Shown: positions 2,418-29,803 of the stretch, piece after piece
Layout: each line of letters starts with the position of its first letter
How positions within the stretch are numbered: position 1 is the first letter of the stretch
DNA from: an uncultured Thermodesulfatator sp.
GTDB taxonomy: Bacteria > Desulfobacterota > Dissulfuribacteria > Dissulfuribacterales > QOAL01
Direction of reading: 5' to 3'
Assembly: GCA_964581255.1 (NCBI GenBank)
Contig: CAZOMT010000007.1
Coordinates: 1 to 29,803 of the forward strand
DNA length: 29,803 nt
Notes under the pieces: generated by a model
Database searches by the model: none
Seen by the model: only the letters and a program-made list of their open reading frames with translations
Told to the model about the DNA's origin: nothing
Position numbers and translations under genes: made by a program

Positions 2418-4712
2418 TCAGGAGAAATCTTTCTGCCAGCACTTCTCCCAGTGTTCCTGTGCTTCGATGGAAGTTGCAGGAAAACCATGATATAGCCTCA
2501 AACCAGTGATTGTCTCTGGATCGTCATGGTTAAAAAAGACAGGGGCCTTATTTGGAAAGTATGAAGCTGTAAAAGGATTATGTGCTTTTGGACCAATGCC
2601 AATAAGAAGTGCTGATTGCGGCACAGCTTCTGTGGATTCGTTGATTTTTAATAAAGGATGCGAGGCTAATTCAAGACGTTGAGCCATTGACCTTTGTTTT
2701 TTGAGAAATGAGATGGCCTTTGTTGCATTCCATTCTCGTATCCATCCAAACTTTGATTTAGCATAGTCTTGAATTCCATCAAAAAACAATTTTCTTCTGG
2801 CTCCAGGGCTGTAAAATTGGGAAATACCGGTGGACAAACTTTTATCTTCTGAAAGATCTTCTAAAAATTCTTCAAAATATTCAGTTAGTTTAGGCTTGCT
2901 GAATTTATGGTAGTAGAGCTTTTTAATGTCATCTTGATCTTCTACTATATGTATTTCAAATGGAGTGACACTAGGATATATCTTGTCAATCTGTTCCTGA
3001 ATCCAGTGTCTTGTCTCTTCAAGTTTTGAGATAAAGGCCTTTATTTCCTCTTCAAGGGGGTTAATAAGTTCCCGCAATTTTTTAGCTACAAACAGTGCGA
3101 AGAAAAATGGAAAGAGCCTTTGGTATCCTTCAAAGACCTCGACACAAATTAACTCCATATATTCCTTAAGCTGTTGGAGTTCTTTTTGTAGAGCTCGTTT
3201 CTTGGAGAACAAGGACCAAGATCTAGGATCATATCTGTGCCATCCAAGTTCAGAGATTTTCTGGTCAAGATCCTGAATTTTTTTAAGGACAGATCGTGCC
3301 TGATCCATAACCCTCTCAAGGGTTGTAATAAGTTGTGCTTCAAAGAGACCTACTATGTCCTGGAAGCCACCTGAAGTAAAAGGATGGGTATAAGGTTCTG
3401 CCAACGCTTCCACAATAAAAGACACCTTGTGTTGGAGCGCTCTGATGAATTCTTTATCTGCTCCAAGCAGCTTATCCATATCTGGTTGTTGGAGAAGACA
3501 CTCAACCTCGTTTTGAAGGGCCTCCCAGGACGAAAGTTCCGGTAAGGGGAGTTGATATGCCTTATAAAATTTTCTTAGCATCTCTGATGCTTCATGAAGG
3601 AGGCGCTTTAGGATAGGAGATGCAGTCTGTCCCTGCCATCCAAAAAGAAAACTCTCTATTGAAACTGGATATGGTGCTTCAGATTCTTCCAGTGGTTCTT
3701 TTTGTAGAAATTCAAGGTACGGACCACCTACCCCCAATACAAGTCCAATAAAACCCCAAGCTGAGTAAGGGGCATGAGGGGCCTGGTCAAGGATCTCCTC
3801 AAGTTCTTTCTTGACATCTTTATATAAGGCTTCTGCAAGAGGTAATATTTTTCTATAGCATTTGATCTTTTTTTGTTCGATTAATAGCCTCAACTTAGCG
3901 AGGAATTTTTCTATAGAGTTTTCCTCTTCTATGGCAAGATTCGCTGGCAAGATATTCTGCCTGGATAACATGACCGGCTCGGCTATCAAGCTGGCTAGAT
4001 CAGTGAGCCGTTTCTTGAACAGTGAATGAACCTGTGATATCTGTATCTTGGTTGCGTCCGAAACAGCTTCAAGTGGAGATAGGGCCTTTATGTTTAAAAG
4101 GTCACGGGCCAACATTAGCCCCAGACTATCTTGCCATTTAGTCGCAGGAAAGCACAATTTTCCTATGCCCACTGATCCATATAAAAATTCCCTTCCTCTT
4201 GTAAGCTTTAGTTTGATTTCTTCATTAAAGGACCGGTACAGATCCGTGGACAGATATATGTCTATGACCTCTTTGAGCCGTTCAAAAGGCATGCGGTCGC
4301 TATCAAGGAGCCAAATAAGGTTAGGGGATTCTTTTGAATCAAGACCGTTAAGCTCGATGAAGAACTGGTAACACTTAGCCTTGGTTCTCTGATCGGCCTC
4401 TATGGAAGGCAACAAGATGAATGCCTCCAGCTCAACAGGGATAACAAGAATGCTTTTATGAATATCAATAAGGGTCTCAATAAACGTCCTAAGCGTTATA
4501 TCTGTATCTTCATAGGCAGCAGCAGTAAATATATATCTTATCGCGCTGACTTTTTTTGCCTTACATTCCTTGTAAATAGGGAACAATTTGGTTTGTAGCC
4601 ATTCTTTAAATTCTCCGGGGTTTATATGGCGAGCCGTAATATTATGTGAAGAAACAGGAGCAATATTTGCTCCTGTTTCTCCAAGTCCTATGAAGACTAG
4701 GCTTTCTTTCAT
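2418..4712 (-). CDS. Large tubulin/FtsZ-like paralogue with degenerate GTP-binding motifs (function unknown)
   Basis: The long minus-strand ORF has stop at 2418. Possible starts are GTG 4745, ATG 4739 or ATG 4712; 4712 lies 10 nt after the upstream stop with AGG 8 nt upstream. N-terminus VFIGLGETGANI (4662-4697) resembles a T1 loop. TFIETLIDIHKSI...AFILLPS aligns by eye with SFIDAAFLFHKAL...GFLILPS of the adjacent 950-aa protein. The GGTGSG signature is replaced by YEDTDITLR. The middle region is long and helix-rich. Confidence 0.6.
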   Translation of the reverse strand: MKESLVFIGLGETGANIAPVSSHNITARHINPGEFKEWLQTKLFPIYKECKAKKVSAIRYIFTAAAYEDTDITLRTFIETLIDIHKSILVIPVELEAFILLPSIEADQRTKAKCYQFFIELNGLDSKESPNLIWLLDSDRMPFERLKEVIDIYLSTDLYRSFNEEIKLKLTRGREFLYGSVGIGKLCFPATKWQDSLGLMLARDLLNIKALSPLEAVSDATKIQISQVHSLFKKRLTDLASLIAEPVMLSRQNILPANLAIEEENSIEKFLAKLRLLIEQKKIKCYRKILPLAEALYKDVKKELEEILDQAPHAPYSAWGFIGLVLGVGGPYLEFLQKEPLEESEAPYPVSIESFLFGWQGQTASPILKRLLHEASEMLRKFYKAYQLPLPELSSWEALQNEVECLLQQPDMDKLLGADKEFIRALQHKVSFIVEALAEPYTHPFTSGGFQDIVGLFEAQLITTLERVMDQARSVLKKIQDLDQKISELGWHRYDPRSWSLFSKKRALQKELQQLKEYMELICVEVFEGYQRLFPFFFALFVAKKLRELINPLEEEIKAFISKLEETRHWIQEQIDKIYPSVTPFEIHIVEDQDDIKKLYYHKFSKPKLTEYFEEFLEDLSEDKSLSTGISQFYSPGARRKLFFDGIQDYAKSKFGWIREWNATKAISFLKKQRSMAQRLELASHPLLKINESTEAVPQSALLIGIGPKAHNPFTASYFPNKAPVFFNHDDPETITGLRLYHGFPATSIEAQEHWEKCWQKDFS

Positions 4713-4722
4713 TATCCATGCC

Positions 4723-7575
4723 TTATGCAATGAGTTCATTTGCACTGGATCCGTTCTTCACCCAAGAATCAAGAAATGTCAATTGCTTGTGCAATAGGAT
4801 CTTGTCTCCAAGGTTAATGGAACGGTCCTCTTCGTTAAAAGTCTTTTTTACATCCTCAAGATAGGCGCGCATTACCTTGCTGACCCTTTCAGGTGAAGTC
4901 TCTATCTTTTCCTTTAGAATCGAAAGAAGTGCGTCAACAAGTTCTTGCCTGTGCGGTTTTTTGAGTTCTTCAAACACTCTCCAGGCAGGATAACCAAGTT
5001 CAAGCCCTTCCTCATCAGCCTTCAGACAGCGCGAATCGTCGATGACGTAACGGCCATAGAACTTTTCCTCTTTTATAAGGCCTAGTGCCATGGAAAGCAT
5101 GTAGATACGAAAGGCCTGTTTGTAAGAAGTATCTTCCGGAAACAGGTCAGGCATTTTGAATTCCAGGTCCTCTGCAATGTGTGGTGTGTTCTCAATAGGC
5201 GCCTCAAGATACATCAGCCGGTATCTTTCCATATCTGCCAGTAGGTAAACTGCAAGGGGTGCCTTGTATTTAAAGAAAAAGATCTTGTGTGGATCAGATG
5301 TAGACATAATGGTAGGAGGATACTGGGCATCTGGAAAGAGGATGTTATTCAAGGTGGTCTTATGCTCGCTATTGACACCAATAATAAAGATCTCTTCCAT
5401 GGTGGCTGCCTGGTCTACACTGGCATTGTGACGCCAGAAGGGAACTGCCCGGCGGGAGGCCTCTCTCAACCAGTATTCCAGGCCCTCCTTACGCAAAGAA
5501 AGTAATGTCTCTATATCAATATTCTTTATGGGGCCTACCATTTTATGGGTATAGGACATGATCTTTTTCCACAGGTCCTTCCAGTTAATATCTTCAATAT
5601 CTCCCATGGTCATCTTGTTTTCTTTCAGAAACTCCTTTGGATCTGGAGGCTTAATGTTAAGTTTGCTAAAGTCAGAAGGTAGCTCTATCAGTTCCTTGGT
5701 CTGTGACAGTTTGATCCTGCCATCTTGTCCTGTTGTTTTAATAAAGATATCATGAGGGAACAGGATGAGTGAGAAATGTCCATATTCATCAAGGACTCTG
5801 GTAGTGCCAAAGTAGTCCTGTTCTATTTTCTCCCTAACACGAGAAAGCTTCATTTCCATGACACCAAGGCCAAGGCCTTCTATGTAGTTTTTCATGCTTT
5901 GAATGATCTTGTTGAGGACTTCAATGGCCTGCCTGTGCCGCTCAATATCAAGCTCAAGCTTGAATACCTCCCCCATCTCATCCAGATAACTCTGGAAGAT
6001 CTTCCCCTGTTTTCTTAGTATCCGGAATCCCAGGCCAACTTTGGTTACGTTGTTATCATAAAAGTCTTTTGCCATTTCCTGGTTTTTGCCAAGTTTTTTT
6101 TCTAGACTCTTAATCTCTTCAAGGAATTCATCTTTGAACAGGCCTAAGCGGGCAGCAATCTTCTCTGCGGACTTGCGTGTATAGATGAACCCCTTGCTCT
6201 CCTCCCTGTCCTTGAGAAACGATTTAACAACTTCCAGTGCATTTTCTTCCTTTTGTATACGGTTTTGCCCTGTAACTTCCCTTAAGGAATCGCGCCTGCG
6301 GACCCCTGAGTCCACCTCCAGGTTCAGCTCCGAAGAAGAACCAAGGCCATCAGCCGAGAGACGAAAGAGCAGGTTTTGATATGTCAAGATGTCATCCAGT
6401 ATCTGCTCCTTATTCAGTCTGGCTTCTGTAAGGAATTTTTGGATAGCTTCTTCCACCTCCTTGTCCTGACCATTTCCGTTATCCCCTTTAATTAATCCGT
6501 TTAGTCCATCAATAAGGGTATAGGCATAGTAGGTAGAGATTTGATTGAAGTGCTTCTCTATGGGATAAATAATGGAAGATATCCCTAAGGTAGAATAACA
6601 AGAATTTTTCTTATTCCATCTTGGAGAGTTGGCAACGATACCTGCCAGGTTGTCAAATGCTGATTCGCTTCTCTGGCCAATATTCCCGAGATTAAGGGCT
6701 ATCCCCTCACCAACAATGCGGCAGAGTGTCAGAACACCACTTGATGTGCCCTTGCCCGGAATGATATTTCCGTTTTCCTGTACTGCGTCGACAAGGCTTA
6801 TGAGATCATAAGGTGGCCGCCTTGGGGAAAATTCCGAGCTTCCAAACACGAAAGTTGGTGCTTGGCGTAAGGAATTAATGTCCATGTAATAATCGAGTTC
6901 TTTTAATGCAGCATATCCGTTCATCTGCACCCTTGGGGTTATTGGCAATCCTTCAAAAACAGAAGGAAGAATCAAAAAGCCTATCACTCTGTGCTCGACG
7001 TTTTCCAGTGCCTTATGAAACAGGAATGCTGCATCAATGAAGGAGCCGCTTCCAGTCCCTCCTGCCAGAGAGGCAATAATGTAGACATCAACTGAGTTAT
7101 CTATCAGTTTAAAGCCCTGTTCTTGATACATATTATGAGCCAGGTTTCCAGCCATGACCTGACTAACTACCTGGGTTATGATCCCCTCGACCTTGTGTGC
7201 ATAGGCATGAAATGCAAGCCGGCCCCTGGCCCTGTAACCGCCAGCTCCGTGAAGAATTGCGTTGACAGGAATGCCCTTAGGCCACCACTGCTTTATGGCA
7301 GGGGAGGTCTGTATGACGTTAAGTGGGTTCTCCACATTGAGATAGTGGAATTCATCCTCTCTTATTCCCACAACCGTTGTCCGCTCTCCTTTTATATTCA
7401 CCCTTAGTGGGCTTGGCCGGTTACTGTCTGTATCCATGGCGAGGAATTTGATGCTGTATGGTATCTTTTCATAGAATTGGATCAGTGCTCGCTTTATAAA
7501 TTGAACCACCTGAATACCTGACCCCCCTATGCCGACAACGACACTTCTCCTTATTCTTGCAATGCCCTCGTTCAT
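4723..7575 (-). CDS. Tubulin/FtsZ-superfamily GTPase, large 'tubulin-like' (Tubulin_2-type) protein
   Basis: ATG at 7575 is preceded by AAAGGGAG. T1-type loop VVVGIGGSGIQV lies at ~7516-7533. Tubulin signature ASLAGGTGSGS lies at ~7042-7066. There is also a GAGGYRARGRLAF motif. About 650 aa of helical/coiled C-terminal extension follows the GTPase core. Confidence 0.8.
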   Translation of the reverse strand: MNEGIARIRRSVVVGIGGSGIQVVQFIKRALIQFYEKIPYSIKFLAMDTDSNRPSPLRVNIKGERTTVVGIREDEFHYLNVENPLNVIQTSPAIKQWWPKGIPVNAILHGAGGYRARGRLAFHAYAHKVEGIITQVVSQVMAGNLAHNMYQEQGFKLIDNSVDVYIIASLAGGTGSGSFIDAAFLFHKALENVEHRVIGFLILPSVFEGLPITPRVQMNGYAALKELDYYMDINSLRQAPTFVFGSSEFSPRRPPYDLISLVDAVQENGNIIPGKGTSSGVLTLCRIVGEGIALNLGNIGQRSESAFDNLAGIVANSPRWNKKNSCYSTLGISSIIYPIEKHFNQISTYYAYTLIDGLNGLIKGDNGNGQDKEVEEAIQKFLTEARLNKEQILDDILTYQNLLFRLSADGLGSSSELNLEVDSGVRRRDSLREVTGQNRIQKEENALEVVKSFLKDREESKGFIYTRKSAEKIAARLGLFKDEFLEEIKSLEKKLGKNQEMAKDFYDNNVTKVGLGFRILRKQGKIFQSYLDEMGEVFKLELDIERHRQAIEVLNKIIQSMKNYIEGLGLGVMEMKLSRVREKIEQDYFGTTRVLDEYGHFSLILFPHDIFIKTTGQDGRIKLSQTKELIELPSDFSKLNIKPPDPKEFLKENKMTMGDIEDINWKDLWKKIMSYTHKMVGPIKNIDIETLLSLRKEGLEYWLREASRRAVPFWRHNASVDQAATMEEIFIIGVNSEHKTTLNNILFPDAQYPPTIMSTSDPHKIFFFKYKAPLAVYLLADMERYRLMYLEAPIENTPHIAEDLEFKMPDLFPEDTSYKQAFRIYMLSMALGLIKEEKFYGRYVIDDSRCLKADEEGLELGYPAWRVFEELKKPHRQELVDALLSILKEKIETSPERVSKVMRAYLEDVKKTFNEEDRSINLGDKILLHKQLTFLDSWVKNGSSANELIA

Positions 7576-7607
7576 AATGATACTCCCTTTCTCTATCTCC
7601 CCTTTGA

Positions 7608-9725: not shown

Positions 9726-9742
9726 TATAGGTACTCAGTTCC

Positions 9743-10483
9743 TTATACATTAAGGTGAGACCTTGCTGGCCTCACAGCTATGATGGTTATATTATCCCTT
9801 CCCCCAGCCTCATTTGCCTCTTTGACTAAAATGTCGCAGGCCTCTTGAAGATCATCTGCCTGTTCCATCAAGACTTTTTCTATTTCCTCGTCCTTAAGCA
9901 TGTCTGTCAGTCCATCGGTGCAAAGGATTAACAGCTCACCTGAATAGGCGATTTCCTTGGTTTCTACCTCAACAGCAGGATTTATCCCCAATGCCCGTGA
10001 GATAGTATTGGCCCTTGGGTGGAGCCTGGCTTCCTCCTCAGAGATTTCTCCCTGTGATATAAGCTGAAATACCAAAGAATGATCGTTTGTCAGCCGTTTC
10101 AGTCCCTTTTGTGTAAGCATGTAGGCCCGGCTATCTCCCACATGGGCCAGAAGAAGCCTGCCCTCCCTTATTACTGAAACGACTACTGTGGTTCCCATGC
10201 CATAGAGCGAAGGATCCTCTATTGATTTCTGGTACACTATCTTGTTTGCTTCTTCTACCACCATTTCAAGATCCTTCAGCGTTATCTGCCCATCTGCCAA
10301 GGGGGCAAGAAGACGTGAAATCTCATCTACTGCCAGAGTGCTTGCCACTTCTCCAGCCTGGTGCCCCCCCATTCCATCTGCCACGATAAAAAAAACTCTA
10401 TCCTGTTCCACACAAAAGGCATCTTCGTTATTGATCCTCAATTTGCCCTTATCGCTATTAGCTCCAACTTCAAGCCGAATCAA
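9743..10483 (-). CDS. PP2C-family Ser/Thr protein phosphatase
   Basis: Motifs present: NNEDAF, VADGMGGHQAGEVAS, CTDGLTD and GGRDNITIIAV. A TTG start at 10483 lies 2 nt after the FHA gene stop. There is no in-frame ATG upstream of the conserved N-terminal block. Confidence 0.85.
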   Translation of the reverse strand: MIRLEVGANSDKGKLRINNEDAFCVEQDRVFFIVADGMGGHQAGEVASTLAVDEISRLLAPLADGQITLKDLEMVVEEANKIVYQKSIEDPSLYGMGTTVVVSVIREGRLLLAHVGDSRAYMLTQKGLKRLTNDHSLVFQLISQGEISEEEARLHPRANTISRALGINPAVEVETKEIAYSGELLILCTDGLTDMLKDEEIEKVLMEQADDLQEACDILVKEANEAGGRDNITIIAVRPARSHLNV

Positions 10484-10485: not shown

Positions 10486-10839
10486 TCAGGCTCCAAGAAA
10501 TTTCAGCCAGATGGATCGTCCAAGCACAATAATATCTCCTGGACTTACAGCTACCTTGTCTCCAGGGATTGGTGGACTATCATTTTTCTTCCAGATCTCT
10601 GTTTCTGTTCCATCCGTAGCAATTATCAAGGTGCCATTAGTGCTTCCCTTGCCATCGTTTCCGGTGTCAATGACAAAGTAGTTTTCCTTTACATGATCAA
10701 TTACTGCATGTCTCTGGCTGACCATCCCAGCATAGCCAATGGGTATGTCATTTTGGGCTCCGCGGCCAAGGGTCACCCTGTCCCTATTTATTTCTACCTT
10801 TTGGGCATCTTCAGGCCCAAACATCACCTCAAATCTCAT
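10486..10839 (-). CDS. FHA-domain protein (phosphothreonine-binding)
   Basis: 117 aa containing VTLGRGAQNDIPI...VSQRHAVI...GSTNGTLI, the canonical FHA G-R / S-x-x-H / N-G signature. Its start overlaps the upstream kinase stop by 11 nt. Confidence 0.85.
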   Translation of the reverse strand: MRFEVMFGPEDAQKVEINRDRVTLGRGAQNDIPIGYAGMVSQRHAVIDHVKENYFVIDTGNDGKGSTNGTLIIATDGTETEIWKKNDSPPIPGDKVAVSPGDIIVLGRSIWLKFLGA

Positions 10840-12181: not shown

Positions 12182-12228
12182 GAATTTTATCATTTTTTAA
12201 CAAAATAAAGCAAGTAGATTTGTTCCTT

Positions 12229-15281: not shown

Positions 15282-15327
15282 TCGTTTTTATAGTCTTTAG
15301 TATAGCCACGCCTTGGGAGGGGAGGAG

Positions 15328-16918: not shown

Positions 16919-17890
16919 ATGCATCCTTTGGAAAACAATCAGGAAGAGAAGTTTCTCAACTATGAAAGGATACAGTTTGAGGGAAAGTGGCTTTGGGTAC
17001 CGTCTCCTGTAGAGCTTCCTATAAGGCGTATAATCGACAGGGATGACATAATGGAGAAGGCCCTTGCAGCCTGGGCCAGGCTGGATGGTCTTCCACCCCT
17101 GAATTTTCGTTTCTACGGCCCTCATGGAACTGGCAAAAATGCCATTGTCTACAGGCTGGCACAGCTTCTAAAAAAGGATCTTTACATTATAAATGGGCAT
17201 GAGGAGCTTGGGCCAGAGGACATCGCGTGTTCTGCCACCATGACCTCAAGCCAAACTATAGAGTACGTGGCCTCTCCCCTTTTTGCAGCTATGCTAAGGG
17301 GTGGGATCTGCTTCTTTGACGAGATCGGCAAGGCCCCTTCAAGGGCCCTCGCCCCTCTTGCCTCTGTCCTGGATGACCGCCGCACCCTCACCTCGGTCCT
17401 TGCCGGAATTCATCTTAAGGCTCACCAGGATTTCCTTTTCTGTGCAGCCCTCAATGAAGACGAGGAAGGGGGCTTTGGGCTTCCGGGCTTTATAGACGAG
17501 CGGACAAGGCCAGCCATCTATGTAGGGTGTCCAGATGTTAGTACCCTGGAAAAGATTTTGAGGAGTCATCTGCCAGGGGCATCAAACCTGTGGTTTACGG
17601 TCTTTCTGGAGGAGTTAAGAGACAAGGAGATTTCCCCAAGGGTTGCTATTATCTTGCTTAGCTACGCATACAGGCTGTCCCGGGCAGATGGCCGCGGGCT
17701 TACCAGAAGGCACATAAGAGGCTTTCTCAGGCGGGCCTGGGAGGACCTAGAAAAGGGGAAGACAGACTATTTCGAGGAACGGGAAGATCAAGATTGTCAG
17801 GATGATCAAGATATAGACGAGGGGGAAGACGATGATGTGGACGGGGTGGACCTCAATTTGCTCGTGCAGGAAGATGAAGCCCTTCATTGA
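16919..17890 (+). CDS. MoxR-like / AAA_5-type AAA+ ATPase with an acidic C-terminal tail
   Basis: AGGAGG (16905-16910) lies 8 nt before ATG 16919. Walker A is FYGPHGTGKNAIV, with Asn where Thr/Ser is canonical. Walker B is ICFFDEIG. FCAALNE is a possible sensor-1 Asn. The tail is EDQDCQDDQDIDEGEDDDVDGVD. Confidence 0.7.
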   Translation: MHPLENNQEEKFLNYERIQFEGKWLWVPSPVELPIRRIIDRDDIMEKALAAWARLDGLPPLNFRFYGPHGTGKNAIVYRLAQLLKKDLYIINGHEELGPEDIACSATMTSSQTIEYVASPLFAAMLRGGICFFDEIGKAPSRALAPLASVLDDRRTLTSVLAGIHLKAHQDFLFCAALNEDEEGGFGLPGFIDERTRPAIYVGCPDVSTLEKILRSHLPGASNLWFTVFLEELRDKEISPRVAIILLSYAYRLSRADGRGLTRRHIRGFLRRAWEDLEKGKTDYFEEREDQDCQDDQDIDEGEDDDVDGVDLNLLVQEDEALH

Positions 17891-22712: not shown

Positions 22713-25079
22713 ATGTTTCCTTTTACGCATTCCATTATCTTTGTATGGCAGATAGCAGCCATTGAGGCTATATCGCAAGACCACGAGTTTCTTGAAAAAG
22801 AGCACGTCTTTTGCGCTCTGTGTAAGGCCCACGAGCTTCTTCAAGAAGATATCTTGGAACAGCTTGGGGTGAAGGGGGTCTCCCTTGAGGCCATCAGAAA
22901 AGAGCTTTTTCCAGTACAATCAGCCTTCAACGCTACCTGTACAGACCCTAAGCACCTGCGCCGCAAATTAAGGATCCTTATCGGCCAGGGGGATTATGAA
23001 CGAAGGAAGGGAGAGGTCATTCACAGAAGCAGGGAGTGTAAGAGGTGCTTTGAGAGTGCAGCAGGGCTTGCCAAGGCAGAAGGCAGCGGCCTCCTTTCCC
23101 CTGTTCATCTTTTCACAGCTCTTCTTCTTGAGCCCACGCCTCACATCGAAAGAGTGCTTATGGAGCTTGGCACCACGTCCAAGGATCTTCTTGAGGCCCT
23201 TCACTCAGGCAAAGGACCACACAAATCCCGGTCATACCTTGAGCGCATCGGCCGAGATCTCGTATCCCTTGCAAAAAAGAGGGAACTTAAGCCACTTATA
23301 GGTAGGCAGGCCGAGCTTCTTCAGATCATCCGTACACTTCTTCGCAGGGATAAGAACAATCCAGTTCTCGTGGGAGATGCAGGGGTAGGTAAGACTGCCA
23401 TTGTAAAGGGTCTTGCCCAAAGGATTTCTGATCGCAATATTGATAAGAGTCTCTGGGGTGTGCAGATCATAGAGATCAATCTTTCATTTCTTCTTGCTGG
23501 AGCAAAATACAGGGGCGAGTTCGAGGAACGGCTCCTGAGGGTTATAGAAGAGGCCAGGGCACGGCCTGAAGTCATACTGTTTATTGACGAGATCCACACT
23601 GTAGCCGAGGCTTCGAGGGCCACGGGCAGCTTGAATGCATCGGATATCATGAAGCCCTTCCTTGTCAGAGGGGATCTCAGGGTGATCGGGGCCACCACTA
23701 CAGATGAGTACCGCCGCTACATAGAGAAGGACCCTGCACTTGAGCGGCGGTTTCAGCCAATCATGGTGGACGAGCCTTGCCGTGAGGATACACTTGAGAT
23801 CTTGAATGGCCTTAAGGTGATATATGAGAGCCACCATGGGGTTAGTATTGATCAAGAGGCCATATCCGCTATACTGGATCTTTCTATACAGTATCTTCCA
23901 TACCGACGCCTGCCAGACAAGGCCATAGACCTCATGGACAAGGCCTGTGCTGCAGTAAGGGTCTCTACTGTGAGCATTTCCAATAGCTCTGAACCTGAAG
24001 AGCCCAGTATCTACCAGGAGGACACAGGCCCGGTACCCCAGCGTCCGGTAGTCACCCCAGATGTGGTGGCACAGTTGGTAAGGGAGGAGACCGGGATACC
24101 TGTAGCCAGGGCCAACGCCCATGACCGTGATATGCTTCTTGGCCTCTCTGAGGTGTTGAAAGACCAGATTGTGGGCCAGGATGAGGCGGTAGAGAAGGTC
24201 TGCCAAGCGGTAAGGCTCTCCCATGTAGGCCTTAAGGATGCTGGGAGGCCCTTGTGTGTGTTCCTGTTTCTTGGTCCAACAGGTGTTGGGAAAACCGGGC
24301 TTGCAAAGGCACTTGCAAGGGGCCTTTTCGGGTCGGCAAACTGCGTGATTCGCCTTGATATGTCTGAGTACATGGAGAGTCACAGTGTGGCAAGGCTCAT
24401 TGGTTCGCCCCCTGGTTATGTGGGGCATGAGGAAGGCGGACAACTTACAGAGGGGCTGAAGAGGAAGCCATACTCTGTTGTGCTCCTTGATGAGATCGAG
24501 AAGGCGCATCCCAGGGTTCTCGATGTGTTTCTCCAGGTATTTGACGAGGGCCGCCTGACTGACGGCAAGGGAGGAACAGTGGATGCCACAAACGCCATCT
24601 TCATCATGACCTCGAATCTTGGTGCTCTGGTCTACCACAAGGAGCCCATGGGCTTTGTTGGACCGGACAGCCAGGAGTATACAAACGTGGTGAATGAGGA
24701 TATTGAGGCAAGACTGAGAAATACCTTGCACCCCGAGTTTCTGAGCCGCATTGACGAAACGGTCCTTTTCCGCCCGCTTGACATAGAGGCCCTTGTGCTC
24801 ATAGCCGGAAAGATGTTTGAGTCACTCAAGAAAAAGATGGCATCAGAGCGAAAGATATTCCTTGGCGTTGAAGCCGGTGTCCTTGAGCTTCTTGCAGAGA
24901 AAGTCCATAACGAGCCTCTGGAAGGCGCAAGACACATGAAAAGGCTTATCAGGCAGATGGTAGAGGTCCCGCTAAGTGAGAGAATCATTAAAGGAGAGAT
25001 CAATCAATGGGACCGGGTGGTCATCCGTCGTACCTCAGGGGATGAGCTTGTTATTGGACTGGATTACAGGACAGAGTAG
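22713..25079 (+). CDS. ClpA/ClpC-like class-I double-AAA+ unfoldase (Clp_N domain, two AAA+ modules, no long M-domain)
   Basis: - Clp_N-type N-terminus: IAAIEAISQDHEFLEKEHVFCALCK.
- D1: LIGRQAEL..., Walker A GDAGVGKTAIV, Walker B ILFIDEIH.
- D2: IVGQDEAV, Walker A GPTGVGKTGLAKALA, Walker B VVLLDEIEKAHP, sensor-2-like GARHMKRLI.
- Only a ~45-aa linker where ClpB/ClpC carry the coiled-coil M-domain.
- PMGFVG loop (MGF at 24648-24656) at the position of the ClpP-docking IGL/IGF/VGF tripeptide. Confidence 0.85.
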   Translation: MFPFTHSIIFVWQIAAIEAISQDHEFLEKEHVFCALCKAHELLQEDILEQLGVKGVSLEAIRKELFPVQSAFNATCTDPKHLRRKLRILIGQGDYERRKGEVIHRSRECKRCFESAAGLAKAEGSGLLSPVHLFTALLLEPTPHIERVLMELGTTSKDLLEALHSGKGPHKSRSYLERIGRDLVSLAKKRELKPLIGRQAELLQIIRTLLRRDKNNPVLVGDAGVGKTAIVKGLAQRISDRNIDKSLWGVQIIEINLSFLLAGAKYRGEFEERLLRVIEEARARPEVILFIDEIHTVAEASRATGSLNASDIMKPFLVRGDLRVIGATTTDEYRRYIEKDPALERRFQPIMVDEPCREDTLEILNGLKVIYESHHGVSIDQEAISAILDLSIQYLPYRRLPDKAIDLMDKACAAVRVSTVSISNSSEPEEPSIYQEDTGPVPQRPVVTPDVVAQLVREETGIPVARANAHDRDMLLGLSEVLKDQIVGQDEAVEKVCQAVRLSHVGLKDAGRPLCVFLFLGPTGVGKTGLAKALARGLFGSANCVIRLDMSEYMESHSVARLIGSPPGYVGHEEGGQLTEGLKRKPYSVVLLDEIEKAHPRVLDVFLQVFDEGRLTDGKGGTVDATNAIFIMTSNLGALVYHKEPMGFVGPDSQEYTNVVNEDIEARLRNTLHPEFLSRIDETVLFRPLDIEALVLIAGKMFESLKKKMASERKIFLGVEAGVLELLAEKVHNEPLEGARHMKRLIRQMVEVPLSERIIKGEINQWDRVVIRRTSGDELVIGLDYRTE

Positions 25080-25156
25080 TAAAGATGATATCAAATATGG
25101 GAGAGGGAAGTGGAGATTGATTGATCCTATTGGAGGTGAGTATCTGGAGGTTTTCC

Positions 25157-25774
25157 ATGGGAGGAGAACTAAGAATAGGTAGAATTCTTGTCTCTACTGG
25201 GGCAAACGGCCCTGGAACAAGGCTTGTGATTTGGTTTCAGGGCTGCCCCTTTTGCTGCAAGGGATGCTTTAATCCCGAATTTCATGACACTGAAGGCGGA
25301 AGCCTCATGTCACGCAGTGAGCTTTTCAACCGTATTGTCTGTCAGCCAGACATTGAAGGAGTCACGTTTACAGGTGGGGAGCCCCTCCTTCAGGCATCAT
25401 CACTCATCCCTTTGGCCCAGGCCATAAAGGGCGCAGGCCTTACAATCGTCTGCTACACGGGCTACACCCTTGAACAGATCAAGGTCGGCATTCCCCCTTC
25501 AGCAAGGCATCTTGTTCCATATCTGGACATACTCATAGACGGGCTCTTTGAAGAGAAGGAAAAGGCCCCGTTGCTTTGGAGGGGAAGCCGCAATCAGAGG
25601 GTACATTTCCTCACTAACAGATACGAACACTTGGCAGAGCAGGCAAACCAGGAGGGCCGAAGGGAGGCAGAGGTCCTGGTTGGACCGGATTCCATTGCTA
25701 TGACAGGCATATTTGACATTGAGTTTTGGGAGAGACTAAAGGCCAAGTTAAGTGGCCATAACAATGAGAGGTAA
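25157..25774 (+). CDS. NrdG/PflA-like radical-SAM activase-family protein (4Fe-4S CxxxCxxC)
   Basis: GGAGG (25146-25150) lies 6 nt before ATG 25157. NGPGTRLVIWFQGCPFCCKGCFNPE (cluster motif ~25241-25267) and VTFTGGEPLLQ match the anaerobic RNR-activase-type family pattern. The size (~205 aa) also fits. Confidence 0.75.
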   Translation: MGGELRIGRILVSTGANGPGTRLVIWFQGCPFCCKGCFNPEFHDTEGGSLMSRSELFNRIVCQPDIEGVTFTGGEPLLQASSLIPLAQAIKGAGLTIVCYTGYTLEQIKVGIPPSARHLVPYLDILIDGLFEEKEKAPLLWRGSRNQRVHFLTNRYEHLAEQANQEGRREAEVLVGPDSIAMTGIFDIEFWERLKAKLSGHNNER

Positions 25775-25779
25775 ATAAA

Positions 25780-26940
25780 ATGCTTTGTCCCTATTGCCTT
25801 GAAGATTGCATACCAACGATCAAAGGAAACGAGTACCAGTGCCCTAAGTGCAAGGAGCGTCTTGAAAGGGAATATGTTGAAAAAAGGCATATTCCAAGGA
25901 CCACTATAGGACTTATTGGGTTTTCCGGCCACGGTAAGACAGCTTATATTACCAGTCTTTTTTATGTCTTGAAAGATATTCTCATGCAGAAATCATTCTG
26001 GCGCGATTTCACTTTAGTGGCGCTTGACAAAAACACAATGGCTGGAGTGTACGACAGAGTACAATTCCTAAAGGATGGGGAGCTTCCGCCACCAACTCCT
26101 TTGAACTTTCCAAGGCCTTGTATCGTAAAGTTTTCAGGCCTGCCGTTTGAAGACAATACCTACAGGGAATACTTCGTCACATTCTACGACATAGGCGGGG
26201 AGGTATATGGAGATGAAGAACACATAACAGATAAGGCAAAGATCATTGCCAAGTCAATAAATGTTCTTTTTCTTATAAGCATTTCAGACAGAAAAGGCAA
26301 CTGGCAAGACAGGATATACAGGCTGCTCAACACATATATCCTTGGCGTAAGGAACAAGCTGAAACTAGACCCAAAGAAGTACCAGAACCTGATTGTTGTC
26401 TTTACAAAGGCAGATGAGATCCTGGACAAGCTATCTGGCGAGCTGAGCAATTACCTTATTACCGGTACCTATACGTGCTATCCCCGCCTGGACGGAACCT
26501 TGGAGGAGATCGATAAGAAATCCAGGATGATAGAGCAATGGCTCAGGGAACAGGATGCCGGCGGGTTCGTAAACCTGGCGCGCCAGCAGTTTAAGAGTGT
26601 GCACTACACTGTTGCATCCGCACTTGGCGCTAGACCTGATGGACAAAGGCTTCATGCAGAGATTCAGCCAGATGATCCGAAGCGGGTTCTTGATCCATTT
26701 ATCCTTGCTCTAAACAACCATTACCCGCTTCCTTTTAGACTCAAGGACTGGATCAATAAGCGTGCCGGGATCTTTTTGGCAGTAATCCTTGCTATCATCA
26801 TAAGTATCTTTTTGCTGATGAATTTCTTTGGGAAATCTCCTCCCCTTCCCCTGAAATTCCATACCAGCACAGTGCAACACAGCAAAACCAACATCCATGA
26901 CACCTTGCAGAAACCAAGCCTCAAGGGGGAAGTCAGATGA
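25780..26940 (+). CDS. Zn-ribbon + P-loop GTPase with a C-terminal transmembrane anchor
   Basis: The start lies 5 nt after the upstream stop.
- Zn-ribbon: CPYC...x13...CPKC.
- G1: GFSGHGKT (25918-25941).
- G3: DIGGE (26188-26202).
- G4: TKAD (26404-26415).
- TM helix: GIFLAVILAIIISIFLLMNFF (~26763-26830). Confidence 0.75.
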   Translation: MLCPYCLEDCIPTIKGNEYQCPKCKERLEREYVEKRHIPRTTIGLIGFSGHGKTAYITSLFYVLKDILMQKSFWRDFTLVALDKNTMAGVYDRVQFLKDGELPPPTPLNFPRPCIVKFSGLPFEDNTYREYFVTFYDIGGEVYGDEEHITDKAKIIAKSINVLFLISISDRKGNWQDRIYRLLNTYILGVRNKLKLDPKKYQNLIVVFTKADEILDKLSGELSNYLITGTYTCYPRLDGTLEEIDKKSRMIEQWLREQDAGGFVNLARQQFKSVHYTVASALGARPDGQRLHAEIQPDDPKRVLDPFILALNNHYPLPFRLKDWINKRAGIFLAVILAIIISIFLLMNFFGKSPPLPLKFHTSTVQHSKTNIHDTLQKPSLKGEVR

Positions 26941-28799
26941 AGATTGATCACTTCATATACACAAGGGTGGATGAGGACATATCCCCGTGGGAGAAAAGTG
27001 GTTTTCAGATGGCCTTTTACCCCCTGGAGCTTTTCAGTAAAAAGGCCCGCATCCATATAGAGGGCCGCATTCACTGGGCAGAGGATATCAAGCCCTCAAG
27101 CAAGATATCAGTCTTTTTCCAGAACCTAAAGGGAGAGGACAGGCTTATCATCCTTTATTACACGGATCAGCCAGAGGCCACAGACAAGTTTGGAAGAAGG
27201 GGCATATTTCTATGCCACGGCCTGGTCTTCCCCCGTACAATCTGGCAGGCCTTGCCAAGCCCACTGCGTGCCCTTGACCTGGTAAAAGACCACATCTTTA
27301 AAGATATAAATGACGCCCTTTCCTCTTCCCTTGTTGACAGGGCAACTGGAAACTTGGCGCCCATCACCATTGATTCCTCAAAGCTTGAGGGTGTGTCACA
27401 GGGGCTTGCCGCCCTTGGCTCTGAGCTTGAGCGGCAGCTTGTGATTCTTCTTAACCGGGCGGCCCGCTCCCAGGAAGAGATGCCCCGGTTTCTTCTTCAT
27501 GGCACACCTGACCATGTCTCCCAATTCATGGACAGGATTGTGGCCTATGTGCCCGATGCCTTCAAGCCCAACCTTGGCTGGGATCCTGCCCTTGATGGCG
27601 GAAGCCTGTTTCACAGCCCGTTCATGATCGCTGGTTACTCGGCCTCGAGGCCTACAGGGGCAGATCCGGTCCATATAGACCTTGAGTCAGTTACCATGGA
27701 ACCTTCGCCTGGAACCACCCTTGACCTGTCTCCAAGGACATCCTACGAGCACTGGTTCATCCGTTGCCAGGATAAGATCAGGCAAAAGCGCCAGATCGAG
27801 GATGTGTACCGCGCGGACCTCTTTTTGAACAAAAAGGGCGGGCCAGGCCCGTTCAAGCCAGATCCATGTTTTTTATCTCTTAACCAAGAGGCCATAGAGA
27901 GGCTTTTCTCAGAAACATGCCAAAGGGTGTTGGACCCGTCCCTCTGCTCCTTTGTTTTCCAGTACACAGGGCTTGATAAGAAATTAGAGCTTCTTTTGCA
28001 AGAGCTTCCCATGAAAAGGATCGCCAGTATCCTGGACAGCATAATCCCTGACAGGGAAAGTCCAGTTCCTGGAAGCATAAAGACCCCTTTCCCAGATCAA
28101 TTACTAAAACATGCAGGGCCAGTTCTAAGGTGCATACACCATTTATGGCTGGAAGGGAAACTGACCCCAGAGGATCTTTCGTCTTTTTCCCATGGGGAAA
28201 AGCTAAGGCTCTGCCGCTACATCCTTCTTTATTTCACAAAAGAGCCCTGGGTTTCAGATATCCTCAAGGCCGAAAAAGAGATCTTTGACCAGCTCATGTC
28301 AGAGGCAAGGGGCCGCATCACAGATGTCCTTAAAACCCACCTTGTCACAAGAAAGAATCTCTCAGGTGAGCTTGCCGGACTCATCGTCAGGGAAGCCCTA
28401 AGACAAGACAAGGCAGAAGGCATCCTTGATGACGATTTCAACTACTTCCCCCTGCTGGAACAGATGATCAAGGCTGCAAGGTTCTCTGAATCAGATATCA
28501 ATGCGCTTTTCGCTCAAGGGCCTGGGGTATGGCAGAGGCTGCCAAAGGATGCATTTCCTTTCCTGCAGGCCTTCTTGATGCCTAAGATAGGGGTAGCAGA
28601 AGAGGTTTTGAACGATTCGCGCATAAGATTGAGCCTTCTTCAGGTGCTTGTCAAAAGGCACAACTACAAAGAGCGAGATTTGTCAGGCCTCAACTACACA
28701 AAAGAAGAGATAGAGAAGGCAATTTTAGATGCAAGGTCCAAGGAAGGCCTGCTTGGCAGGATAAAATCCATGTTTGCCTTTAAGGGGAGGAGATCATGA
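26937..28799 (+). CDS. Uncharacterised 620-aa protein; N-terminus resembles GTPase-associated protein 1 (GAP1)-type domains
   Basis: There is an ATGA start/stop overlap with the GTPase gene (26937-26940). N-terminal HFIYTR...x11...SGFQMAFYP and later GRRGIFLCHGLVF resemble, from memory, the (Y/H)T...GFQ ... GR.G.(Y/F).H.LV signature. That signature belongs to proteins encoded next to conflict-system GTPases. The rest is mostly helical with no motif I recognise. Confidence 0.5.
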   Translation: MKIDHFIYTRVDEDISPWEKSGFQMAFYPLELFSKKARIHIEGRIHWAEDIKPSSKISVFFQNLKGEDRLIILYYTDQPEATDKFGRRGIFLCHGLVFPRTIWQALPSPLRALDLVKDHIFKDINDALSSSLVDRATGNLAPITIDSSKLEGVSQGLAALGSELERQLVILLNRAARSQEEMPRFLLHGTPDHVSQFMDRIVAYVPDAFKPNLGWDPALDGGSLFHSPFMIAGYSASRPTGADPVHIDLESVTMEPSPGTTLDLSPRTSYEHWFIRCQDKIRQKRQIEDVYRADLFLNKKGGPGPFKPDPCFLSLNQEAIERLFSETCQRVLDPSLCSFVFQYTGLDKKLELLLQELPMKRIASILDSIIPDRESPVPGSIKTPFPDQLLKHAGPVLRCIHHLWLEGKLTPEDLSSFSHGEKLRLCRYILLYFTKEPWVSDILKAEKEIFDQLMSEARGRITDVLKTHLVTRKNLSGELAGLIVREALRQDKAEGILDDDFNYFPLLEQMIKAARFSESDINALFAQGPGVWQRLPKDAFPFLQAFLMPKIGVAEEVLNDSRIRLSLLQVLVKRHNYKERDLSGLNYTKEEIEKAILDARSKEGLLGRIKSMFAFKGRRS

Positions 28800-28864
28800 G
28801 CGGTGTCATTCACAGGTTCAGGCTAAGGGGCAGCAAGAGTAAAGGAATGGCGGAGGGTTAGGGT

Positions 28865-29803
28865 ATGAGGTTAAGAGGTCTCTGGATTCTCAGGGTCATT
28901 TCTCTCGCGGTCTGTGCGGTATTGCTCCTTTCGGAGGTGGGGTGGGGTGCGACCACCTATGATGTAAAGAGGTGGGAGAGAGAAAAGGCAGTAGAGCCAT
29001 TGATAAAAGCGCTCAAGGATTCTGACTCGTCTGTTCGTAAGGCCGCAGCCCAGGCATTGGTAGTAATTGGCAAACCAGCAGTAGGGCCATTAATAGAAGC
29101 GCTCAAGGATTCTAACTCGTCTATCCGCGCATTTGCAGCCTTGGCATTGGGGAAGATAGGTGATAAGCGAGCAGTAGGGCCATTGATAAAAGCGCTTAAG
29201 GATTCTGACTCGTCTGTTGTCCGCGCATTTGCAGCCTTGGCATTGGGGGAGATAGGTGACAATCGCGCAGTAGGGCCATTGATAAAAGCACTCAAGGATT
29301 CTTCCTGGGCTGTCCGCGCAGTTGCAGCCTTGGCATTGGGGAAGATAGGTGATAAGCGAGCAGTAGGGCCATTAATAGAAGCGCTCAAGGATTCTCACTC
29401 GTGGGTCCGCTATGATGCAGCCGAGGCATTAGGTAAGATAGGTGACAAGCGAGCAGTAGAGCCATTGATAAAAGCGCTTGAGGATTCTGACTGGTATGTG
29501 CGCTATCAAGCAGCCGAGGCATTGGGGAAGATAGGTGACAAGCGAGCAGTAGAGCCATTGATAAAAGCGCTCAAGGATTCTGACTCGTGGGTCCGCTATG
29601 ATGCAGCCGAGGCATTGGTAAAAATTGGCAAGCCAGCAGCAGAGCCATTGATAAAAGCGCTCAAGGATTCTGACTCGGATGTCCGTTGGCGAGCAGCCGA
29701 GGCATTGGGGAAGATAGGTGATAAGCGAGCAGTAGGGCCATTGATAGAAGCGCTCAAGGATTCTAACTGGCTTGTCCGTGATAATGCAGCCGAGGCATTG
29801 GGG
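28865..29803 (+). CDS. Secreted HEAT-repeat (PBS-lyase HEAT-like) protein, 3' end outside window
   Basis: This gene is not in the supplied ORF track because no stop falls inside the window. My manual translation from ATG 28865 (GGAGGG at 28852-28857) is open for 313 codons to nt 29803. It starts with MRLRGLWILRVISLAVCAVLLLSEVGWG, a signal-peptide-like stretch. About 9.8 units of AV(E/G)PLIKALKDSD..VR..AAEALGKIGDKR follow. Confidence 0.8.
   Translation, partial: MRLRGLWILRVISLAVCAVLLLSEVGWGATTYDVKRWEREKAVEPLIKALKDSDSSVRKAAAQALVVIGKPAVGPLIEALKDSNSSIRAFAALALGKIGDKRAVGPLIKALKDSDSSVVRAFAALALGEIGDNRAVGPLIKALKDSSWAVRAVAALALGKIGDKRAVGPLIEALKDSHSWVRYDAAEALGKIGDKRAVEPLIKALEDSDWYVRYQAAEALGKIGDKRAVEPLIKALKDSDSWVRYDAAEALVKIGKPAAEPLIKALKDSDSDVRWRAAEALGKIGDKRAVGPLIEALKDSNWLVRDNAAEALG
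28988..29803 (+). repeat. Tandem 90-96-bp coding repeats (HEAT units), highly similar at the nucleotide level
   Basis: Units begin at 28988, 29078, 29171, 29267, 29360, 29453, 29546, 29636 and 29729. They share the core gcagta(g/a)ggccattgataaaagcgctcaaggattct. Units are contiguous and in frame, with no unique spacers. Confidence 0.85.

Follow-up and report, generated by a model that had tools for sequence, protein, structure and literature searches.

A 27-kb signalling and NTPase gene region of an uncultured Thermodesulfatator sp. as a probable mosaic of three multi-gene systems

Does a tightly packed run of protein kinase and nucleoside triphosphatase (NTPase) genes encode a single apparatus, or several systems that have come to lie side by side? 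The question is raised by a 29,803-nt stretch of DNA from an uncultured Thermodesulfatator sp. (GenBank assembly GCA_964581255.1, contig CAZOMT010000007.1; the whole stretch is hereafter called 'the window'), in which positions 2418-29803 hold 15 intact genes and one gene cut by the contig end, according to open reading frame (ORF) calling and Pfam, NCBIfam, and PADLOC scans. A sequence-only reading of this region had proposed that three adjacent operons form one phospho-signalling and NTPase island with the hallmarks of conflict systems. Here, we argue for a defence-island-like mosaic in which three separable multi-gene systems, designated S1, S2, and S3, lie side by side, a reading to which we assign a probability of roughly 55%.

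Three separable units

S1, a cassette built around a tubulin-like protein and a vWA protein, occupies positions 2418-12136 of the minus strand and includes two further genes, K3 and Clp, at 20038-25079; S2, centred on a TIR protein, occupies 12220-19979; and S3, centred on a GTPase and a GAP1-family protein, occupies 25121-29803 and beyond. The minus-strand genes are transcribed in the order K1, FHA, PP2C, vWA, Tub2, P775, and the plus-strand genes in the order K2, TIR, (spacer), MoxR-like, P715, K3, Clp, radical-SAM, DO-GTPase2, P620, HEAT (Table 1).

The separability of these units emerges from a sample of approximately 105 related loci (denoted by L-numbers), covered with at most 10 kb of flank on either side and often on short contigs. 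None of these loci holds all three systems. S1 and S2 genes are absent from the 10 S3-anchored loci within the available 10-20 kb, S1 and S3 genes from the 80 TIR-anchored loci, and S2 and S3 genes from the S1 loci. The set comprising radical-SAM, DO-GTPase2, GAP1, and HEAT genes is self-standing in Kryptonia, Gammaproteobacteria, Planctomycetia, and other lineages, with no tubulin, vWA, TIR, or MoxR gene within 10 kb. Within the window, the blocks differ in orientation, are divided by a long spacer, and are heterogeneous in GC content at third codon positions (GC3), which ranges from 0.375 to 0.573 per gene. Because the units are conserved separately, because orientation, spacer, and GC3 set the blocks apart, and because ATPases matching the PADLOC candidate system PDC-S01 lie on the left flank, the pattern is that of a defence-island mosaic. 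Unrelated defence systems commonly cluster into such islands.

The unit borders cut across the operons named in the sequence-only reading, and those operons, judged by synteny, are not the functional units. That reading had named independent distribution of the operons as the observation that would count against a single co-assembly, and independent distribution is what the loci reveal for the island as a whole, although real links across operon borders remain. Much else in it stood. Nearly every item of its domain inventory was reproduced: the catalytic-loop motifs of the three Hanks kinases read exactly as it had stated (Table 1), and the PP2C, FHA, vWA lipoprotein, TIR, RyR, MoxR-like, two-ring Clp, radical-SAM, membrane GTPase, and TPR and HEAT array assignments were borne out by domain hits or by the sequence itself. 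The gene junctions are as tight as it had described: neighbouring genes overlap by 4, 11, 23, or 59 nt or stand 2-83 nt apart, except across one spacer of 547 nt. As it had also noted, there is no housekeeping gene among the genes at 2418-29803. A tRNA search of the window found none. The claim of conflict-system hallmarks holds insofar as the region consists solely of signalling, NTPase, and repeat proteins, whose families are assigned in the literature to conflict-type or uncharacterised membrane-associated systems, but not for one co-assembly.

Table 1. Features of the window, in order of transcription within each block
Feature	Position	Strand	System and evidence
K1, Hanks Ser/Thr kinase (HRDVCPEN, DMG) with C-terminal Clp_N-like domain	10829..12136	-	S1; Pkinase E 8e-35
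FHA protein, stand-alone (phospho-Thr reader)	10486..10839	-	S1; FHA E 6.9e-10
PP2C phosphatase	9743..10483	-	S1; PP2C E 1.5e-19
vWA lipoprotein, 705 aa	7608..9725	-	S1; VWA_2 E 2.7e-10
Tub2, Tubulin_2 / FtsZl1-family protein, 950 aa	4723..7575	-	S1; PF13809 E 2.7e-56
P775, degenerate Tub2 paralog	2418..4745	-	S1; hhalign to Tub2 family
K2, Hanks kinase (HRDIKPGN, DFG)-TPR-TPR-S-SLOG-like-RyR	12220..15234	+	S2; Pkinase E 2.9e-40, TPR-S E 5e-14, RyR E 1.2e-35
TIR protein; likely start ATG 15328	15313..16371	+	S2; TIR_2 E 1.6e-16
MoxR-like AAA_5 ATPase	16919..17890	+	S2-associated pair, part 1; AAA_5 E 1.4e-17
P715, function unassigned	17832..19979	+	S2-associated pair, part 2; overlaps MoxR-like gene by 59 nt
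K3, non-RD Hanks kinase (HLDLKPEN, DFS) with TPR_12 array	20038..22677	+	Probable S1 component away from cassette; Pkinase E 4.5e-19, TPR_12 E 6e-74
Clp, two-ring Clp/Hsp100 unfoldase	22713..25079	+	Probable S1 component away from cassette, possibly shared with S3; AAA_2 E 7e-61, AAA, AAA_lid_9, ClpB_D2-small, Clp_N
Small NrdG-like radical-SAM protein	25121..25774	+	S3; Fer4_12 E 1.5e-36
DO-GTPase2, N-terminal zinc ribbon, C-terminal transmembrane segment	25780..26940	+	S3; PF19993 E 1.2e-6, 28.9 bits versus cut-off 27
P620, probable divergent GAP1-N2-family protein	26937..28799	+	S3; relatives hit GAP1-N2; overlaps GTPase gene by 4 nt
HEAT-repeat (PBS-lyase type) protein, secreted or membrane, cut by contig end	28865..29803	+	S3; HEAT_2 E 1.7e-76
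DUF4143/AAA_14 ATPase, cut by contig end	7..960	+	Left flank, outside the three systems
DUF4143/AAA_14 ATPase pseudogene	1104..~2215	-	Left flank, outside the three systems

PADLOC, run on all 18 proteins of the window, returned generic kinase, TIR, AAA, TPR, and HEAT matches only and called no system. The spacer (16372-16918) is AT-rich (~40% GC) and contains a weak promoter-like site at 16872-16901, but neither an ORF nor a remnant could be identified in it. Between 11900 and 29803, predicted promoters and terminators were no more numerous than in shuffled sequence and did not define operon borders. Profiles of Tub2 and P715 found no relatives among viral contigs and thus no sign of phage origin. 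On the left flank, the two DUF4143 genes (E 1.5e-54 and 1.1e-33) match PDC-S01 with E 2.8e-86; the minus-strand copy reaches ~2215, upstream of the ORF as called, and has in-frame stops around its Walker A motif (RQSGKITLL followed by a stop), and is therefore a pseudogene.

Composition and relatives of the units

Tub2 is a member of Pfam family Tubulin_2, which corresponds to the FtsZl1 family (PMC9871819). Its PF13809 match covers profile positions 1-351 of 356, the GGTGSG signature is intact, a long helical C-terminal extension is present, and the GGSG and AGGTGSG columns are invariant in an alignment of 11 Tub2 homologs. A search of 5.8 billion protein clusters yielded 158 homologs, six of them close, full-length, and 37-58% identical, and genomic contexts were retrieved for four independent relatives and searched by tblastn with every window protein. 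In L008 and L009 (Tub2 57% identical), the cassette is precisely K1-FHA-PP2C-vWA-Tub2-P775; L003 (50%; contig of 116 kb) keeps this order with a K3 ortholog added between PP2C and vWA; and L005 (37%) has a collinear cassette with a Clp ortholog added between the same two genes. Only vWA, Tub2, and its partner are kept, among housekeeping genes, around a distant Tub2 homolog (L006; 23% identical) in a 7.65-Mb genome, and this trio is the ancestral core of S1. An RHH-PIN toxin-antitoxin pair lies inside the tubulin cassette, between the kinase-TPR and vWA genes, at L003:6873-7516 and L004:1059-1702. The closest relatives of Tub2 (57%; L009) and of the TIR protein of S2 (64%; L026) occur in the same JGI sample, Ga0315279, on different contigs, and no K2-like gene lies within 10 kb upstream of the TIR gene in L026.

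The sequence-only reading had seen a pair of tubulin-like GTPases, of which one stands as described and the other in part. P775, the gene of which lies always directly downstream of Tub2 in relatives, has no Pfam hit, including at E up to 5, but aligns with the Tub2 family in hhalign over both its C-terminal domain (probability 94.6%, E 7e-8) and its N-terminal tubulin-like core (probability 83%, E 8e-6). It reads AYEDTD where Tub2 has GGTGSG, and the N-terminal glycine motif is unconserved among P775 orthologs. P775 is thus a Tub2 paralog with a tubulin-like core minus the GTP-binding signature, and the pair consists of one probably GTP-competent and one degenerate protomer. Searches of Tub2 and P775 profiles against PDB sequences gave nothing significant.

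The remaining cassette genes are equally stable in position. The K1 orthologs of L003 and L008 share 44-51% identity with the window protein, and that of L005 shares 35%; they conserve the HRD, N, and D-x-G motifs and the ALK lysine, and the lysine position of the catalytic loop varies (C/S/A/K). Their Clp_N-like motif SNCYLGLEH is likewise conserved, with Pfam Clp_N found in the L005 and L008 orthologs and only a faint match (Pfam, E up to 5) in the C-terminal domain of the window protein. The FHA gene stays between the kinase and PP2C genes in L003, L005, L008, and L009, and PP2C orthologs (49-57% identical) are unchanged in position in L003, L005, and L008. The vWA protein has a lipobox signal peptide (IAGC), an extracytoplasmic vWA domain with a metal ion-dependent adhesion site (MIDAS; DNSGS), a beta-rich region, one transmembrane (TM) segment (~residues 560-585), and a ~120-aa cytoplasmic tail, and its gene lies directly upstream of Tub2 in every relative, the distant L006 included. 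The tail after the TM segment (7608-7970, the C-terminal ~120 aa) is beta-rich and superficially FHA-like or YscD-like, with no Pfam match.

K3 and Clp probably belong to S1 despite lying on the other strand, 8-18 kb away, because their orthologs lie within or adjoin the tubulin cassette in L003 and L005. L003 has two K3 orthologs (45% identical), one within the cassette and one, together with further kinase-TPR genes, after the P775-type partner gene. Because the orthologs keep HLD..KP.N and DFS, K3 represents a stable non-RD subfamily rather than a decaying kinase. Clp has a Clp_N domain, and the Walker motifs of its two rings are intact. It reaches none of the NCBIfam equivalog cut-offs (ClpB 715.8 versus 1232, ClpA 633 versus 993, and ClpV 600.8 versus 885) and is a divergent two-ring Hsp100. 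We rejected the view that it is solely part of the radical-SAM/GTPase operon: a full-length ortholog (45% identical) is embedded between the PP2C and vWA genes of L005. A hydrophobic-Gly-Phe loop, which in ClpA, ClpC, and ClpX is the site of ClpP docking, is kept in the second ring (D2), as MGF in the window and VGF in L005, and by analogy suggests that this Clp, too, may dock ClpP.

The nearest published counterparts of S1 are the vWA/FtsZl1 operons, which have been described with kinases and ZnR-GTPases and with a predicted role in membrane remodelling (Makarova and Koonin 2010, PMC2875224). As in those operons, the gene of a Tubulin_2 protein immediately follows that of a membrane-associated vWA protein whose MIDAS (DxSxS) is intact, Ser/Thr kinases are associated, a ZnR-GTPase is present elsewhere in the window, and the distribution is sparse. 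S1 adds FHA, PP2C, a Clp_N-like kinase, and an obligate degenerate tubulin neighbour, with an embedded Clp or HLD/DFS kinase-TPR gene in relatives; such features were not found in the parts of PMC2875224 that were consulted. An OmpA-like gene, another point of difference from those operons, is absent from the window.

The TerY-P triad, reportedly set out by Anantharaman and colleagues in 2012, is said to combine a vWA protein, a PP2C phosphatase, and a Ser/Thr kinase. The sequence-only reading had invoked it, and the likeness is real in that kinase, PP2C, and vWA genes share one minus-strand operon with gaps of 2-17 nt or overlaps. It ends there: the vWA protein of S1, a transmembrane lipoprotein of 705 aa, is unlike the small TerY type, FHA and the tubulin pair are added, and no window protein has a Pfam or NCBIfam hit to a Ter family.

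For S2, a TIR-anchored scan of JGI metagenomes gave 139 full-length relatives and returned 80 loci. Across 74 sequences, the TIR motifs FISYSH.D and RGWVHQEIGYA, the latter with the catalytic Glu, show conservation of at least 90%. The family has an additional conserved C-terminal domain without a recognised fold, for which Pfam gave no usable hit at E up to 5. By ORF clustering, its commonest neighbour (32/80 loci, median distance 13 nt downstream) is a 700-1000-aa protein with the Pfam architecture RelA_SpoT (or NUDIX+RelA_SpoT)-TPR-LSDAT_prok SLOG-RyR, which appears to be the layout of K2 with a different head. SLOG-like or RyR parts of K2 adjoin the TIR family in 17 of the 80 loci, and the K2-type SLOG-like domain also occurs as a stand-alone N-terminal unit fused to DUF4231/SLATT_1.

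That K2 contains a SLOG domain had also been claimed. Pfam does not detect one in the Rossmannoid region concerned (~residues 715-905), at E up to 5, and structure-based comparison gave no help, as a single-sequence AlphaFold model of residues 704-1004 (predicted local distance difference test score [pLDDT] 39.9) was unusable for fold comparison. Sub-threshold matches (YpsA 2nx2 E 0.16; DprA 0.0086 in one relative; YpsA and cpYpsA below threshold), together with the architectural context, nevertheless make the SLOG identity likely. The TIR protein itself matches PADLOC ThsB weakly and partially (E 2.6e-6 over ~80 residues), scores far below the cut-offs of the NCBIfam Thoeris and retron TIR models, and found one weak partial match among plasmids by tblastn. 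Other recurrent neighbours of the TIR family (among L076, L079, L092, L038, L046, and L107) are a sigma54-type AAA+ activator directly beside the TIR gene; pairs of ~630-660-aa proteins, of which a ~640-aa member (cluster c7, L079:11158-13083) has HATPase_c; a phosphofructokinase-domain fusion of up to ~900 aa; and giant WD40 proteins.

The nucleotide-signalling logic of TIR and SLOG domains has been described (PMC7272460, PMC9503650), and Thoeris offers the closest comparison. S2 resembles it in being a two-gene unit in which a TIR protein with a conserved catalytic Glu is adjacent to a protein with a SLOG-type sensor beside a variable effector head. It differs in the head, which is a Hanks kinase (RelA_SpoT, NUDIX, or SLATT in relatives) and not the SIR2 or Macro-TM of ThsA; in the sensor, which consists of TPR-S, SLOG-like, and RyR parts; in the extra C-terminal domain of the TIR protein; and in a facultative MoxR-like/P715 pair.

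In the window copy of this pair, the ATPase has a Walker A motif reading GTGKN and an intact Walker B (FFDE). Its Walker A, G-x-G-K-N in place of GK[ST], has Asn in five of eight aligned members and GKT in L011, L073, and L076; the GKN variant was seen in the window and in L092, L106, L107, and L108. MoxR-like orthologs (42-68% identical) are always encoded directly upstream of a P715 homolog. P715 has only 26 homologs in a word-indexed search of the 5.8 billion clusters, no Pfam (including at E up to 5), NCBIfam, or PADLOC hit, and a confident AlphaFold model (pLDDT 84.8; predicted template modelling score 0.79) for which Foldseek found no significant match in the PDB (best E 0.038, template modelling score 0.13). 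The second-ranked match, 2qni (probability 0.72), is weak and unverified, and the N-terminus of a distant homolog (L076:38-2350) resembles a TraB/PrgY/GumN motif, an unverified candidate. This very rare family, with a confident predicted fold without a PDB match, is a separate small lead. P715 was also considered as a vWA partner of the MoxR-like ATPase and rejected, as neither Pfam nor Foldseek on the confident model revealed a vWA domain; the vWA + MoxR pairing of the sequence-only reading thus falls away, and the vWA gene of the window belongs to the tubulin cassette.

The pair occurs on its own in L010, L011, L106 (amid housekeeping genes), and L108, and at least five further loci (L073, L076, L081, L092, and L107) link it to the TIR family. 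P715-profile homologs lie beside MoxR-like genes 2-7 kb from the TIR gene in L076 and L092 (E 4e-22 and 9e-18) and in L073 and L081 (~1e-6), and P715 is near TIR in 4 of 40 TIR loci having at least 5 kb of flank. In L107, the gene order is SLOG protein, NUDIX, TIR (full length, 47% identical), sigma54-type AAA, HPr-like, MoxR, P715, and kinase. Because the P715 family is so rare, this link is not due to chance, and it is facultative. Like the MoxR-vWA ternary systems (PMC7159879), the window has an AAA_5 MoxR-like gene that overlaps the start of a large partner gene; unlike them, it has a partner without a vWA domain, no VMAP or iSTAND third component, and a Walker A GKN in most members.

S3 begins with a radical-SAM protein that scores 118.9 bits against the NrdG model TIGR02491, below the cut-off of 126.1, and neither the window nor the S3 relatives encode a glycyl-radical enzyme or NrdD partner. 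Its orthologs (43-61% identical) are encoded directly upstream of DO-GTPase2 in L012, L017, L018, L020, and L023. DO-GTPase2 has a zinc ribbon (CPYC..CPKC), Walker A GFSGHGKT, Walker B DIGGE, and TKAD, of which CPYC..CxxC, GHGKT, DIGGE, and TKAD are invariant in the alignment; a genome scan with that alignment recovered 10 loci, in metagenome-assembled genomes (MAGs) of Desulfobacterales, Ca. Kryptonium, Gammaproteobacteria, Bacteroidales, and Planctomycetia. The closest genomic DO-GTPase2 relative (47%, Desulfobacterales MAG) has, 18 nt upstream of it, a gene for a 1125-aa Hanks kinase (HRDIKPAN/DFG)-TPR-WD40-like protein (L016:6606-9983).

P620 has no direct Pfam hit, even at E up to 5, and three close relatives in a word-indexed search, the contigs of which read HEAT-rSAM-GTPase-P620-HEAT (rSAM, radical-SAM) in L012 and GTPase-P620-HEAT in L013. 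An exhaustive search with a P620 profile found 340 cluster representatives; 29 of the 60 sampled hit GAP1-N2 (PF20013; best E 3e-11), GAP1-M was hit by one of the 60 and GAP1-C by none, and a relative at L023:7522-9363 hits GAP1-N2 with E 2e-5. Through these relatives, P620 can be placed with fair assurance as a divergent member of the GAP1-N2 family, as the sequence-only reading had suspected in calling it GAP1-like.

The rSAM-DO-GTPase2-GAP1-HEAT set is conserved in L012, L013, L017, L018, L020, and L023, and HEAT genes flank the rSAM-GTPase-GAP1 genes in L012, L013, L017, L018, and L020. A longer cluster, AAA618-p348-p203-p311-HEAT-rSAM-GTPase-GAP1-HEAT, is found in L017, L018, L020, and L023. 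AAA618 is a 618-626-aa AAA+ protein with an unknown N-domain and a Clp-D2-like ring, lying with p348, p203, and p311 at L017:1621-6057, L020:2500-9400, and L023:11057-17000 and in L018; the latter three are unknown proteins of ~348, 203, and 311 aa, of which p203 has a faint FGE-sulfatase match. None of these four is encoded in the window, where the contig ends, so that some could lie downstream. Considered together, S3 appears to be a GAP1-N2-type GTPase-centric system with a lineage-specific accessory set.

Systems of GAP1-N2 and DO-GTPase proteins have been described (Kaur, Burroughs, Iyer, Aravind 2020, PMC7159879). S3 shares with them a DO-GTPase that carries a zinc ribbon at its N-terminus, a Glu in Walker B, and a TM anchor, as well as a GAP1-N2-family gene directly downstream; tubulin+vWA and kinase+PP2C+vWA modules, two of the published themes, are nearby in the window. 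It departs from them in having a single GTPase, a GAP1 protein too divergent for Pfam, and no FNIII component (no window protein hits FNIII repeats, the contig ending inside the HEAT gene). Its accessory set (the NrdG-like radical-SAM protein, HEAT, and, in relatives, the Clp-D2-like AAA+ protein with three unknowns) was not found for GAP1 systems in PMC7159879, where radical SAM is mentioned solely in FtsH ternary systems and HEAT repeats solely alongside vWA proteins. It differs, too, in its lineages, which comprise Kryptonia, Gammaproteobacteria, Desulfobacterales, Bacteroidales, and Planctomycetia.

The statement that no named system matches the region is thus right as far as PADLOC goes, but each part fits a class described computationally: every part falls in a class already described by comparative genomics, and nothing is categorically new. 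What does appear to be new are the specific architectures: the S1 set of eight genes, the TIR-SLOG system with a kinase head and MoxR/P715, and the radical-SAM/HEAT GAP1-N2 system.

One system, two, or three

Several observations weigh against a mosaic of three systems. With flanks of at most 10 kb and many short contigs, co-occurrence of the units elsewhere in the same genomes is possible; the SLOG assignment in K2 is sub-threshold; all three classes are known from comparative genomics alone, and PADLOC detects no known system; and the core pairs of L006 and L106 lie among housekeeping genes, which is untypical of defence islands. K3 and Clp are contiguous with S3 in the window, and K3-type kinase-repeat proteins and Clp-D2-type ATPases adjoin S1 and S3 relatives alike (L016; L017, L020, and L023). 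At the family level, DO-GTPase/GAP1-N2 genes are linked with tubulin+vWA and kinase+PP2C+vWA modules (PMC7159879), and FtsZl1/vWA operons with ZnR-GTPases (PMC2875224), so that S1 and S3 may here be two halves of one system. Such a GAP1-N2-type GTPase-centric system would merge both themes and share K3 and Clp, with TIR, K2, MoxR, and P715 as an unrelated insertion, and there is a good deal to recommend it: GAP1-N2 neighbourhoods are centred on tubulin+vWA (52%) or kinase+PP2C+vWA (10%) (PMC7159879), ZnR-GTPases and kinases are frequent in vWA/FtsZl1 operons (PMC2875224), the genes K3-Clp-rSAM-DO-GTPase2-P620-HEAT form one tight co-directional run (gaps of 35, 41, 5, -4, and 65 nt), the window has Clp in the position where S3 relatives have their own Clp-D2-like AAA+ protein, and the kinase-TPR-WD40 gene of L016 abuts DO-GTPase2. 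We nevertheless consider it unlikely. No DO-GTPase2, P620, or radical-SAM gene occurs in the close S1 relatives L003 (10 kb on each side of Tub2), L005, and L008, and no Tub2, vWA, FHA, or PP2C gene occurs in those S3 loci for which 10-20 kb of context is available (L017, L018, L020, L022, and L023); the AAA+ protein of S3 relatives, moreover, matches the Clp D2 ring only, at a level of similarity common to all Hsp100 proteins.

The same loci bear on the larger claim that all 27 kb encode a single, integrated phospho-signalling and NTPase apparatus with every part in one pathway. The genes are contiguous with nothing unrelated between them, the systems are interleaved (K3 and Clp of S1 lie between S2 and S3), three kinases share the window with one phosphatase and one FHA reader, and L107 joins a SLOG protein, TIR, MoxR, P715, and a kinase. 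Each unit is, however, complete and conserved alone in other lineages, no other locus in the sample joins the three, a 547-nt AT-rich spacer and divergent orientation part the blocks, GC3 varies across genes, and the clustering of unrelated defence systems in islands is the rule; a single apparatus is very unlikely. A different objection concerns S1 alone, which might serve the host as a cytoskeletal, membrane-remodelling, or envelope machine and not be a conflict system, with the proximity of S2 and S3 incidental. Triads of Hanks kinase, FHA, and PP2C proteins often regulate growth and division, the vWA protein is a transmembrane lipoprotein, the L006 homolog sits amid housekeeping genes in its 7.65-Mb genome, and membrane remodelling and vesicle biogenesis are predicted for the FtsZl1/vWA class (PMC2875224). 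Against a host machine of this kind stand the sparse and patchy distribution of Tub2 (six close homologs among the 5.8 billion clusters), the RHH-PIN pair inserted in the operon in L003 and L004, the TIR, GAP1, and PDC-S01 genes as neighbours, and the placement of tubulin+vWA modules in conflict systems (PMC7159879), and we regard it as improbable. The mosaic of three separable systems thus remains our preferred reading.

A proposed scheme and its implications

Polymerisation, the signalling chemistry, the direction of information flow, and a role in conflict or abortive infection are what we infer for these systems, all of which would follow one scheme of an NTPase switch, a sensor, and an effector. 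In S1, the extracytoplasmic vWA domain, through its MIDAS, would sense a ligand or an envelope perturbation and pass the signal via the single TM segment to the cytoplasmic tail, and Tub2 and P775 would co-assemble at the membrane into a GTP-dependent polymer. Assembly would be gated by phosphorylation, with K1 and K3 as writers, FHA as reader, and PP2C as eraser, and the two-ring Clp, perhaps with ClpP, would unfold, reset, or remove the assembly; the Clp_N-like domain of K1 is a likely interface for docking to, or competition with, Clp. In S2, the TIR protein would convert NAD+ into a signal that the TPR-S/SLOG-like/RyR module of K2 binds, activating the kinase head in a Thoeris-like logic with a kinase as effector, and the MoxR-like/P715 pair may be a facultative accessory module of chaperone type that remodels or licenses a component. 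In S3, the membrane-anchored GTPase and the GAP1 protein would constitute a threshold switch, the radical-SAM enzyme may modify a protein partner or a nucleotide, HEAT proteins would act as scaffold, and the neighbouring Clp may replace the dedicated single-ring AAA+ protein of relatives.

We further propose, tentatively and with the balance tilting against it, that S1 is an unrecognised immune or abortive-infection device in which a vWA-triggered Tub2/P775 heteropolymer, licensed by phosphorylation and dismantled by a ClpP-docking Clp, is wired to the DO-GTPase/GAP1 system via K3 and Clp.

In such islands, operon borders are not borders of functional units, as K3 and Clp illustrate: their partner genes lie on the opposite strand at a distance of 8-18 kb. 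The annotation of systems there therefore needs synteny and not adjacency. All three system classes are known from comparative genomics only, and the window and its relatives supply compact, well-delimited, clonable versions of each, namely a six- to eight-gene tubulin-like/vWA cassette with a full phospho writer, reader, and eraser set and its own unfoldase; a TIR system that would be read out by a protein kinase instead of by NAD depletion; and a GAP1-N2 GTPase system that appears to have recruited a radical-SAM enzyme. Should S1 prove to have a defensive role, prokaryotes would possess an immune device that relies on a tubulin-like polymer, a result that would bear on the long-standing question of FtsZl1 function.

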